Part shown: positions 33,617 through 42,434 of the stretch, piece by piece
How the letters are laid out: each line of letters starts with the position of its first letter
Numbering within the stretch: position 1 is the stretch's first letter
Source: Escherichia coli
Lineage (GTDB): Bacteria; Pseudomonadota; Gammaproteobacteria; Enterobacterales; Enterobacteriaceae
NCBI RefSeq assembly: GCF_003334815.1
Contig: NZ_QOWO01000001.1
Strand: one strand, 5' to 3'
DNA length: 64,000 nt
Position numbers and translations under genes: made by a program
Notes under the pieces: model-generated
Databases searched by the model: none
Told to the model about the DNA's origin: nothing
The model's input: only the letters and a program-made list of their open reading frames with translations

Positions 33617-33984
33617 ACCCGCCGGAACGGTTTATTACGTACATCAGGTAAAACTGACCGATAAGCCGCTTTCTTTTGGGTATAGTGTCGTGGACAGTCA
33701 TTCATCTTTCTGCCCCTCCAAAAGTAAAAACCCGCCGAAGCGGGTTTTTACGTAAAACAGGTGAAACTGACCGATAAGCCGCTTTCTTTTGGGTATAGTG
33801 TCGTGGACAGTCATTCATCTTTCTGCCCCTCCAAAAGCAAAAACCCGCCGAAGCGGGTTTTTACGTAAACCAGGTGAAACTGACCGATAAGCCGCTTTCT
33901 TTTGGGTATAGCGTCGTGGACAGTCATTCATCTTTCTGCCCCTCCAAAAGCAAAAACCCGCCGAAGCGGGTTTTTACGTAAATC
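33617..33984 (-). repeat. 113-bp tandem repeats downstream of rnpB (three full copies plus a degenerate partial), each carrying a terminator hairpin
   Basis: Repeat units begin at 33645, 33758 and 33871 (exact 113-bp period); each contains aaaaacccgccgaagcgggttttt and a copy of the last ~40 nt of rnpB. Confidence 0.85.
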
Positions 33985-34361
<377 letters not shown>

Positions 34362-39050: not shown

Positions 39051-40622
39051 ATGGCCAACATCGAAATCAGACAAGAAACGCCAACTGCGTTTTATATAAA
39101 AGTTCACGACACAGATAATGTGGCAATTATTGTTAATGATAATGGCCTGAAAGCAGGAACGCGTTTTCCGGATGGGCTGGAATTAATTGAACATATTCCC
39201 CAGGGGCATAAAGTCGCATTGCTGGACATTCCGGCTAATGGTGAAATTATTCGTTATGGCGAAGTGATTGGTTACGCCGTGCGTGCAATCCCACGCGGAA
39301 GCTGGATCGACGAATCAATGGTTGTACTACCGGAAGCGCCGCCGTTACACACGCTGCCACTGGCAACCAAAGTCCCGGAACCCTTACCGCCGCTGGAAGG
39401 ATACACCTTTGAGGGCTATCGCAATGCCGATGGCAGCGTGGGCACCAAAAACCTGCTCGGTATCACCACCAGCGTCCACTGTGTGGCAGGCGTGGTGGAC
39501 TATGTAGTAAAAATCATTGAACGCGATCTGCTACCGAAATACCCGAACGTCGATGGCGTGGTGGGGCTGAATCATTTGTACGGTTGTGGCGTGGCGATTA
39601 ACGCACCGGCGGCAGTTGTACCTATCCGTACCATTCACAATATTTCGCTGAATCCTAACTTTGGCGGCGAAGTAATGGTGATTGGCCTGGGTTGTGAAAA
39701 GTTGCAGCCTGAGCGCCTGCTGACTGGAACGGATGATGTGCAAGCTATTCCAGTAGAAAGCGCCAGCATTGTCAGTTTGCAGGATGAAAAGCATGTCGGT
39801 TTTCAGTCCATGGTCGAGGATATTTTGCAGATCGCCGAACGCCATCTACAAAAACTGAATCAACGGCAGCGAGAAACCTGCCCGGCTTCAGAACTGGTCG
39901 TTGGTATGCAGTGCGGTGGCAGCGATGCGTTTTCTGGTGTAACGGCAAACCCGGCGGTTGGCTATGCGTCTGATCTACTGGTGCGCTGCGGCGCAACGGT
40001 GATGTTTTCAGAAGTAACGGAAGTGCGTGACGCGATCCATCTGCTGACACCACGCGCAGTGAACGAAGAGGTCGGCAAACGGCTGCTGGAGGAGATGGAG
40101 TGGTACGATAACTATCTCAATATGGGAAAAACCGACCGCAGCGCCAACCCTTCGCCGGGCAACAAGAAAGGCGGTCTGGCAAACGTGGTAGAGAAGGCAC
40201 TCGGCTCCATTGCTAAATCGGGTAAAAGCGCAATTGTTGAAGTGCTGTCGCCCGGTCAACGCCCGACTAAACGCGGATTAATTTACGCCGCGACGCCAGC
40301 CAGCGATTTTGTCTGTGGCACGCAACAGGTGGCTTCGGGTATCACAGTGCAAGTGTTTACGACCGGTCGTGGTACGCCGTACGGCCTGATGGCGGTACCC
40401 GTCATTAAAATGGCAACCCGCACCGAGCTGGCGAACCGCTGGTTTGATTTAATGGATATTAATGCGGGCACCATCGCTACCGGCGAAGAAACTATTGAAG
40501 AGGTGGGCTGGAAGTTGTTCCACTTTATTCTCGACGTCGCCAGCGGGAAGAAGAAAACCTTCTCGGATCAATGGGGGCTGCATAACCAGCTGGCGGTGTT
40601 TAACCCGGCACCGGTGACCTGA
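39051..40622 (+). CDS. garD: Galactarate dehydratase GarD (523 aa)
   Basis: ATG at 39051 with a GGAGA Shine-Dalgarno; paralogous in sequence to UxaA in this window; divergent from garP. Confidence 0.95.
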
Positions 40623-40645
40623 TTTCTTTTGGAACGTCCCTCGCA

Positions 40646-40672
40646 AAACATGGCCTTAGTGCCATGTTTTTA
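40646..40672 (+). terminator. Rho-independent terminator of garD
   Basis: Stem aaacatggc / gccatgttt with a 6-nt loop followed by a T-run. Confidence 0.75.
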
Positions 40673-40699
40673 TTGTTTAAAGCCCCCACGTCCATTAAT

Positions 40700-40734
40700 A
40701 ATGCATTTGCATTACCTTAGTTCAAGCTTATAAT
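40700..40734 (+). promoter_or_regulatory. prlF-yhaV promoter with a palindromic operator
   Basis: Perfect palindrome AATGCAttTGCATT at 40700-40713 overlaps the presumptive -35; TATAAT at 40729-40734. Confidence 0.5.
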
Positions 40735-40770
40735 TTGAGCAGAAAACAGGCTGTAAAAGGACAGTGAATC

Positions 40771-41106
40771 ATGCCCGCTAATGCTCGCTCTCACGCTGTA
40801 CTGACCACTGAATCAAAGGTCACGATACGCGGACAAACAACTATCCCCGCGCCAGTGCGTGAGGCCTTAAAACTGAAGCCAGGCCAGGACAGCATTCATT
40901 ACGAAATTCTGCCTGGTGGGCAAGTATTTATGTGCCGACTGGGAGATGAACAGGAGGATCATACTATGAATGCATTTTTGCGTTTTCTGGATGCAGATAT
41001 CCAGAACAACCCGCAAAAAACTCGTCCATTCAACATTCAACAAGGAAAGAAACTTGTCGCTGGCATGGACGTCAACATTGATGATGAGATTGGCGACGAC
41101 GAATAA
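40771..41106 (+). CDS. prlF: Type II antitoxin PrlF (SohA), AbrB/SpoVT-like fold (111 aa)
   Basis: ATG at 40771 with an AAAAGGA Shine-Dalgarno; acidic C-terminus; stop overlaps the yhaV start (TAATG). Confidence 0.85.
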   Translation: MPANARSHAVLTTESKVTIRGQTTIPAPVREALKLKPGQDSIHYEILPGGQVFMCRLGDEQEDHTMNAFLRFLDADIQNNPQKTRPFNIQQGKKLVAGMDVNIDDEIGDDE

Positions 41107-41570
41107 TGGATTTTCCACAAAGGGTTAATGGTTGGGCGCTATATGCTCATCCCTGTTTTCAGGAAACCTACGACGCTTTAGTTGCCGAAGTCGAGACATT
41201 AAAGGGAAAAGATCCTGAAAATTATCAGAGAAAAGCCGCCACAAAGTTATTGGCGGTAGTCCATAAAGTGATTGAGGAGCATATCACGGTCAATCCATCA
41301 TCACCGGCATTCCGTCATGGCAAGTCGTTAGGCTCTGGGAAAAATAAAGACTGGTCACGGGTAAAATTTGGTGCTGGTCGTTATCGTCTCTTCTTTCGTT
41401 ATAGTGAAAAAGAGAAAGTCATCATTCTGGGATGGATGAACGATGAAAACACTCTGCGCACCTACGGTAAAAAAACAGATGCCTATACCGTATTCAGCAA
41501 AATGTTAAAAAGAGGACATCCTCCTGCCGACTGGGAAACCCTCACCCGAGAAACAGAAGAAACCCATTGA
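41106..41570 (+). CDS. yhaV: Type II toxin YhaV (ribonuclease, 154 aa)
   Basis: ATG overlapping the prlF stop; basic protein; classic antitoxin-toxin gene arrangement. Confidence 0.85.
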   Translation: MDFPQRVNGWALYAHPCFQETYDALVAEVETLKGKDPENYQRKAATKLLAVVHKVIEEHITVNPSSPAFRHGKSLGSGKNKDWSRVKFGAGRYRLFFRYSEKEKVIILGWMNDENTLRTYGKKTDAYTVFSKMLKRGHPPADWETLTRETEETH

Positions 41571-41624
41571 TGGTGTTCACAATGCCCGCCGAACGCATTC
41601 GTGTTGACCAGCGGGCATCCTTTC

Positions 41625-42434
41625 TCACTCCCCGACCAGAATCACTTCAACCCCAGCCTTTCGCAGTCCTTCCAGGCTATCCGCAGGAATGCCTTCATCA
41701 ACAATGATCATGTCGATACGTTGAGTATCAATGATCTTATGTAAACTGGAACGATTGAACTTACTGGAATCGGTGACCACGATGATCCGTTCCGCAACTT
41801 CGCACATCCGACGGTTTAAACGAGCTTCATCTTCATTATGTGTGCTGACGCCGCGCTCCAGATCGATCGCATCTACACCAAGAAACAGCATATCGAAGTG
41901 GTAATTTTGCAGCGATTGCTCAGCCTGATCGCCGTAAAAAGATTGCGACTGACGGCGCAAATGCCCGCCGGTCATCAGCAGCTCAACGCCTTCCGCTTCC
42001 AGCAACGCATTAGCCACGTTCATACCGTTGGTCATCGCAATTACGTCAGTGTGCTTGCGCATCAGACGAGCAATCTCAAAAGTGGTGGTCCCGGAATCGA
42101 GGATAACCCGATGACCTGGCTGAATCAACTCAACGGCAGCTTTCGCAACGCTGCGTTTCATCGCGGTGTTCAGTGCGCTTTTATCTTCCACTGATGGCTC
42201 GACTGACGGCGTCGTGCTATCGCAGATCAACGCGCCACCATAGGCACGCACAGCGATCCCCTGCTTTTCCAGAAACGCCAGATCGTTGCGGATCGTCACA
42301 GTAGATACGCCATACAATGCCGACAGATCGTTAACCTGCACACTCCCTTGCTGTCGCAGACGCTGAATGATCTGTTCTCGTCGCTCGCTGGTGCCAGTCA
42401 CTCGCTTCTCACCTGAAGCGTCGGTATTACTCAT
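41625..42434 (-). CDS. agaR: DeoR-family repressor AgaR (269 aa)
   Basis: N-terminal helix-turn-helix plus a sugar-phosphate-binding domain; divergent from kbaZ. Confidence 0.9.

Follow-up and report, generated by a model that had tools for sequence, protein, structure and literature searches.

Upstream of the Escherichia coli genes prlF and yhaV, a toxin-antitoxin pair, lies an inverted repeat that overlaps the likely promoter, which raises the question of whether this repeat is the operator through which the toxin-antitoxin complex represses its own operon. We examined the locus within a stretch of 64,000 nucleotides of E. coli DNA, referred to here as the window, starting from a preliminary description that had proposed such autorepression. 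On the evidence set out below, the locus is very likely a chromosomal type II toxin-antitoxin operon that has its own promoter and operator and represses itself by excluding RNA polymerase. The features of the locus are collected in Table 1.

Table 1. Features of the prlF-yhaV locus, in window coordinates
Feature	Position	Strand	Basis
garD intrinsic terminator hairpin, AAAACATGGC / GCCATGTTTT, with T-rich tail	40645..40670	+	10-bp stem, 6-nt loop
Operator dyad TAATGCA-tt-TGCATTA (7-nt arms, 2-nt centre); putative binding site of the PrlF-YhaV complex	40699..40714		Inverted-repeat search; conservation in homologous loci
-35 hexamer TTGCAT, in the right arm of the dyad	40707..40712	+	Promoter scan and relatives; 16-nt spacer to the -10
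-10 hexamer TATAAT	40729..40734	+	Sequence; promoter scan; relatives
Predicted transcription start	40741..40742	+	Sigma-70 geometry, 7-8 nt after the -10
AAGGA, resembling a Shine-Dalgarno sequence, 9 nt ahead of the prlF ATG	40757..40761	+	Read from the sequence
prlF (sohA), antitoxin, 111 aa	40771..41106	+	ORF; NF007429 equivalog; PF15937
(CATTCAA) x 2.3 heptanucleotide repeat in prlF	41027..41042	+	Tandem repeat; S. sonnei MLVA locus SS3
TAATG stop/start overlap	41104..41108	+	prlF stop TAA 41104-41106 and yhaV ATG 41106-41108, one base in common
yhaV, RelE-superfamily ribosome-dependent mRNA endonuclease toxin, 154 aa	41106..41570	+	PF11663; AlphaFold2 model; activity from the literature

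The description of the two genes as a prlF-yhaV type II pair was borne out by family models and by annotation. PrlF matches the NCBIfam equivalog model NF007429 over residues 1-111 with 170 bits (cutoff 125) as well as Pfam PF15937 (7.2e-42), and YhaV matches PF11663 (8.9e-54). The stretch from 40600 to 41650 is 100% identical to several complete E. coli chromosomes and is present in 5168 of the 5426 complete E. coli genomes. In the RefSeq annotation of identical E. coli sequence, the order is garD, prlF, yhaV and agaR, so that the pair does sit between the gar and aga clusters. When the AlphaFold2 model of YhaV (pLDDT 82.7) was compared with the PDB, the best matches were the toxins PfiT, RelE and HigB (probability 0.98-1.00), and the fold, as modelled, is RelE-like. 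No structure has been solved for PrlF, YhaV or their complex with the operator. Searches among solved structures found no sequence relatives of either protein, the PADLOC defence-system models gave none for PrlF or YhaV, and the Rfam scan of the locus returned no RNA family.

The layout is that of a compact two-gene operon with the antitoxin first. The reading frames overlap by one nucleotide in a TAATG, as had been described, and the gene junction in Enterobacteriaceae-type homologues is TAATG, TGATG or ATGA. Judging from this overlap, translation of yhaV is probably coupled to that of prlF. Both genes have been reported to be transcribed together as one mRNA, and the reported ratio of antitoxin to toxin mRNA is 1.11 (PMC5535158). 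YhaV is a ribosome-dependent toxin (PMC8546651), described in the literature as an mRNA nuclease of the RelE clade; it stops growth, and PrlF neutralises it (PMC7781912, PMC8546651).

Neither the prlF-yhaV system nor its autoregulation at a promoter palindrome is new, the latter having been published in 2007. For the stoichiometry of the complex, its binding to DNA, co-repression, the activity of the toxin and the single transcript, we rely on the literature. According to one review (PMC7781912), Schmidt et al. (2007) reported that a PrlF2-YhaV4 complex binds the palindrome of the prlF promoter cooperatively, and a second review states that prlF-yhaV "may" follow a scheme in which the toxin is a co-repressor (PMC8138530). 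A 2025 Reg-Seq preprint has prlF and yhaV among its targets; its text and supplement give no results for either gene. A full-text literature search for ATGCATTTGCAT returned unrelated papers only. In our inverted-repeat search, the garD terminator was the only other palindrome found near the prlF promoter. Because the repeat at 40699-40714 is thus the only promoter palindrome at prlF, we infer that it is the published binding site.

The control region of prlF is bounded upstream by the garD terminator and so comprises about 100 nt. Within this region, the consensus TATAAT was found at exactly the positions given in the preliminary description. The promoter scan pairs it with TTTGCA (40706-40711) as the -35, with a 17-nt spacer and 10/12 matches. 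Comparison with relatives favours TTGCAT instead, one base further on and with a 16-nt spacer. Both hexamers fall inside the repeat, which therefore does cover the likely -35 as had been claimed, and the -35 and -10 hexamers have the 16-18 nt spacing of a sigma-70 promoter. The start of transcription would lie just after the -10, at the position given in Table 1; no mapped start for prlF was found in the accessible literature. In prlF loci outside Escherichia (L008, L021, L023 and L026-L030), another conserved block, CAGAAGTTAAYCA, was seen a short way past the -10, where the transcript is predicted to start. Its E. coli equivalent is only partial, CAGAAAACAGG (compare 40739-40750 in the window), and the block may serve as a leader element or as an additional binding site.

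The repeat itself differs slightly from its first description as a perfect 14-bp palindrome. The sequence AATGCAttTGCATT is indeed located at 40700-40713, and the arms are each one base longer, TAATGCA at 40699-40705 and TGCATTA at 40708-40714, with 100% complementarity and 2 nt between them. The word "perfect" has to be given up, because the central TT is not self-complementary, and the element is more correctly a 7+2+7 inverted repeat. Truly perfect palindromes, of up to 24 bp in Cedecea, occur in those relatives that have AT at the centre. Two other interpretations of sequences in this region were considered and rejected. The dyad is not an RNA hairpin or terminator, since it lies upstream of the promoter -10 and a 2-nt loop cannot form. 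The TAATGC hexamer at 40779-40784, within prlF, was discarded as a third half-site, being just six bases of coding sequence that are not conserved beyond Escherichia.

A repeat of this kind is not rare. When the 148-nt intergenic region was shuffled, 4.7% of the shuffles had a perfect 7+7 inverted repeat with a spacer of 0-4 nt, and there are 34 such repeats in the 64-kb window, so that the repeat at 40699-40714 is not significant by itself. These frequencies speak for the possibility that the dyad is a chance by-product of an A+T-rich promoter, in which only the -35 and -10 would be functional and any autoregulation would be exerted at another site. The window contains no other close match to the dyad pattern. 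The significance of the dyad lies in its conservation across genera.

To assess this conservation, prlF-yhaV loci were gathered from a one-genome-per-species scan and from contigs encoding diverged PrlF proteins. The 16 representative loci comprise Escherichia (including E. albertii and cryptic lineages), Pseudocitrobacter, Enterobacter, Cedecea, Salmonella, Photorhabdus, six metagenomic lineages and one viral contig, L136. The core TGCA-NN-TGCA is found 39-74 nt upstream of the start codon in all 16, and nearly all have the full 16-bp dyad TAATGCA-WT-TGCATTA. For example, the Enterobacter dyad reads ATGCAATTGCAT. Mean pairwise identity among the 16 loci is 0.88 in the 18-nt motif block, compared with 0.27, or about random, in the adjacent 21-nt upstream flank. 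The dyad is the sole conserved block upstream of prlF homologues down to 42-47% protein identity, and it always lies over the core promoter. The Photorhabdus loci carry it although their proteins are only 42-47% identical to those of E. coli, the Salmonella loci that have it are in prophage regions, and L136 has it beside prlF-yhaV in G+C-rich flanks. Escherichia lineages that differ in their upstream neighbour are homologous from the left edge of the dyad onwards.

In 11 of the 16 loci, the TTGCAT of the right arm stands 16-17 nt upstream of a hexamer with 5-6 of 6 matches to TATAAT (TATAAT, TATACT or TATATT). This spacing is kept while the spacer sequence is unconserved, which is the signature of a real -35/-10 pair, and the right arm may owe some of its conservation to serving as the -35. 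The left arm, however, contains no promoter element and is conserved across genera as well as the right arm, between flanks and a spacer that are random, which is difficult to reconcile with a repeat arising by chance from promoter composition. Furthermore, the motif is kept where its register to the likely promoter differs, as in L024, Photorhabdus and L136, in the latter two of which the dyad is apparently located in the promoter spacer and over the -10. Finally, binding of the complex to a promoter palindrome is reported in the literature, and only the garD terminator is available as another palindrome. Despite the shuffling frequencies, these observations leave a chance origin of the dyad extremely improbable.

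The fate of the dyad in decaying loci was also visible within Photorhabdus. Loci in which the toxin or antitoxin genes are frameshifted or degraded (L010, L016, L017 and L020) have a mutated left arm (TGTA), and the intact loci (L012, L013 and L015) have a perfect repeat.

The motif is not confined to this gene family. At least 120 viral contigs carry the 16-mer of the dyad, and among the matches listed, 119 have no prlF or yhaV nearby, L136 being the sole viral contig in which the 16-mer adjoins prlF-yhaV. This count is a point in favour of a chance origin, and it follows that the motif, necessary though it is in the prlF-yhaV family, is not specific to that family. In one of the viral contigs (L103, 8426-9682), a 75-nt tandem repeat of 16.7 copies, unrelated to prlF, has the 16-mer TAATGCATTTGCATTA in some of its copies.

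A different possibility is that the protein bound at the dyad is a host regulator with no relation to the toxin-antitoxin pair, such as a regulator of the gar or aga genes or a global factor. The position of the site in the garD-agaR neighbourhood would suit such an assignment. However, the motif moves with prlF-yhaV into unrelated contexts (L021, L023, L027, L028 and Photorhabdus), and it is absent where the antitoxin lacks a DNA-binding domain. The latter case is Vibrio phage O395 (L031), the only yhaV homologue found in the phage GenBank collection. Its product is 45% identical to YhaV and its antitoxin, of 64-73 aa, is without an AbrB-like DNA-binding domain; no ATGCA-NN-TGCAT motif was found upstream of the homologue (1199-1909). 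We therefore consider a separate host regulator very improbable, and take the dyad to be the operator of the toxin-antitoxin pair itself.

The contexts in which homologues of the pair were encountered are of some interest in their own right. Those in L027 and L028 come directly after holin, lysozyme and DUF2570 lysis genes, that in L021/L022 is beside a gene with a phage antirepressor (ANT) domain, and that in L023 is beside HlyIII and YgfZ genes. Such neighbourhoods suggest that prlF-yhaV may be carried by phages as accessory genes.

Signs of a DNA-binding domain were seen in PrlF, which gives a weak match to PF04014 (i-E 0.0023, residues 16-39) and scores 27.1 bits against TIGR01439, below the cutoff of 28.3. 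A PrlF profile run against the PDB gave three matches, all of them AbrB-family regulators and all weak (E 0.5-0.7), and the AlphaFold2 model of the monomer, built from an 11-sequence alignment, was unusable (pLDDT 43). These matches point weakly to an AbrB/MazE-like, DNA-binding N-terminal part with an AbrB-type fold. The C-terminal part of PrlF is acidic.

A mechanism can be proposed from these elements and the published data. The sigma-70 promoter would give rise to one bicistronic mRNA, on which the TAATG overlap would link yhaV translation to that of prlF. PrlF would dimerize via its AbrB/MazE-type N-terminal domain and grip YhaV with its C-terminal part, forming PrlF2-YhaV4. This complex, with YhaV as co-repressor, would occupy the dyad and keep RNA polymerase off the promoter, so that the operon represses itself. 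Polymerase exclusion is the most likely form of autorepression because no other palindrome lies in the promoter and the -35 hexamer, being the right arm of the dyad, would be occluded by the bound complex. If PrlF were lost or altered, the promoter would be freed and YhaV, a RelE-like ribosome-dependent mRNA nuclease, would be released. The autorepression by the toxin-antitoxin complex that the preliminary description had put forward is thus supported, both by the conservation of the dyad on the core promoter and by the reviews that describe binding of the complex to the palindrome.

At the same operator, PrlF might also repress alone, with YhaV modulating repression through the toxin-antitoxin ratio (conditional cooperativity, in which excess toxin frees the DNA) rather than acting as an obligatory co-repressor. 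Such conditional cooperativity is widespread among type II systems, and the review that describes the co-repressor scheme words it only as something that "may" apply (PMC8138530). An arrangement that would suit cooperative binding of several complexes was found in L024 and L025, which have two operator copies, TAATGCAAATGCATT and TAATGCAACTGCATTA, located 73 and 51 nt upstream of prlF. The copies are therefore 22 bp apart, or about two helical turns. The PrlF of these loci, 51% identical to that of E. coli, is the most diverged full-length homologue found by protein search. No second copy is present 22 bp to either side of the E. coli dyad. The data summarised in the other review (PMC7781912) are of cooperative binding by the PrlF2-YhaV4 complex, and the sequence does not discriminate between the two schemes. 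Repression by PrlF alone is in our judgement unlikely, and repression by the complex, with YhaV as co-repressor, is the scheme that we retain.

The locus can be compared with characterized systems. There is no detectable difference from PrlF(SohA)-YhaV of E. coli K-12 (Schmidt et al. 2007, J Mol Biol 372:894), which occupies the same locus between the same garD and agaR neighbours. MazE-MazF and other systems with AbrB/SpoVT-type (swapped-hairpin) antitoxins are likewise antitoxin-first two-gene operons. PrlF has in common with these antitoxins an apparent AbrB/MazE-like N-terminal domain (weak matches, residues 15-39), and self-repression at a palindrome in the operon's own promoter is a property of theirs that we also read in prlF-yhaV. 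In contrast to MazE-MazF, the partner of PrlF is RelE-like rather than MazF-like, the complex is reported as PrlF2-YhaV4 (PMC7781912), and the operator is a short, sharply defined 16-bp dyad. With RelB-RelE and HigB-HigA, the features in common are on the toxin side, namely the toxin fold and ribosome-dependent mRNA cleavage; those operons, too, are autorepressed, through operators overlapping the promoter. Their DNA-binding domains are of the ribbon-helix-helix or helix-turn-helix type, whereas that of PrlF appears AbrB-like, and YhaV is longer (154 aa), with extra helices in the model.

Loss of the pair by deletion was observed in E. coli strain R32_14_1F (L001, 2990-3100). Here prlF-yhaV is missing between two ATGCCCGC 8-mers, of which one is formed by the first bases of prlF and the other follows closely on yhaV (40771-40778 and 41582-41589 in the window). 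The operator and the leader are retained, with TCTAAT as the -10, and in this lineage the upstream neighbour is a second agaR-like gene and not garD. Elsewhere in the window, three copies of AACCCGCCGAAGCGGGTT, 113 nt apart, come after the 3' side of rnpB, the RNase P RNA gene (minus strand, 318.6 bits; 33729-33972 and 33985-34361). We presume that these copies are the repeats reported 3' of rnpB.

Inside the antitoxin gene, the heptanucleotide repeat CATTCAA was found to coincide with a typing locus. Shigella sonnei strains are typed at the MLVA locus SS3 (Liang et al. 2007), whose forward primer matches exactly at 40939-40958, 69 nt upstream of the repeat, and thus flanks a 7-nt unit of variable copy number; the two sites are the same. 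In one study, no locus was more diverse than SS3, for which 40 strains yielded 16 alleles. The window has a short allele of 2.3 copies, in which the frame is kept, compared with long alleles of up to ~30 copies in S. sonnei and some E. coli. Many PrlF variants from S. sonnei and E. coli in the databases contain (FNIQHST)n insertions that correspond to 5-30 copies of CATTCAA, in all three reading frames, and the database alleles as a whole, inferred from the protein alleles, range from 2 to 30 copies. For example, at one locus (L152, 1457-1570) there are 16.3 perfect copies, while operator, promoter and yhaV are all intact. The frameshifted prlF alleles likewise keep the operator and an intact yhaV.

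A classical mutation of the antitoxin gene may map to this same tract. The prlF1 allele is a 7-bp duplication in prlF that hyperactivates the Lon protease and that, in an evolution experiment in the laboratory, became fixed in a sweep. The position of the duplication was not found in any accessible source, and a link between SS3 and prlF1-type alleles was not found in the searchable literature. One extra copy of the 7-nt unit fits, and the CATTCAA repeat is apparently the prlF1 site. It is conceivable, if unlikely, that the tract is a contingency switch rather than a neutral typing marker only. In that case, slippage would alter the copy number, and out-of-frame alleles would replace the C-terminal, toxin-binding tail of PrlF while the operator, the promoter and yhaV were retained.

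As a discovery, the locus carries little weight, prlF-yhaV being a catalogued type II toxin-antitoxin pair of E. coli K-12. What the present analysis adds is, first, a family-wide operator consensus, TAATGCA-WT-TGCATTA, and second, evidence that the right half-site of this operator doubles as the -35 hexamer, which provides clean targets for mutagenesis. A third addition is the placement of a hypervariable 7-nt typing repeat of S. sonnei, SS3, inside the antitoxin gene, at the apparent site of prlF1, a mutation that recurs in laboratory evolution. If the repeat does act as a switch, it would reversibly put cells, above all those of S. sonnei, in a prlF1-like state, with the operon derepressed and the Lon protease hyperactive.
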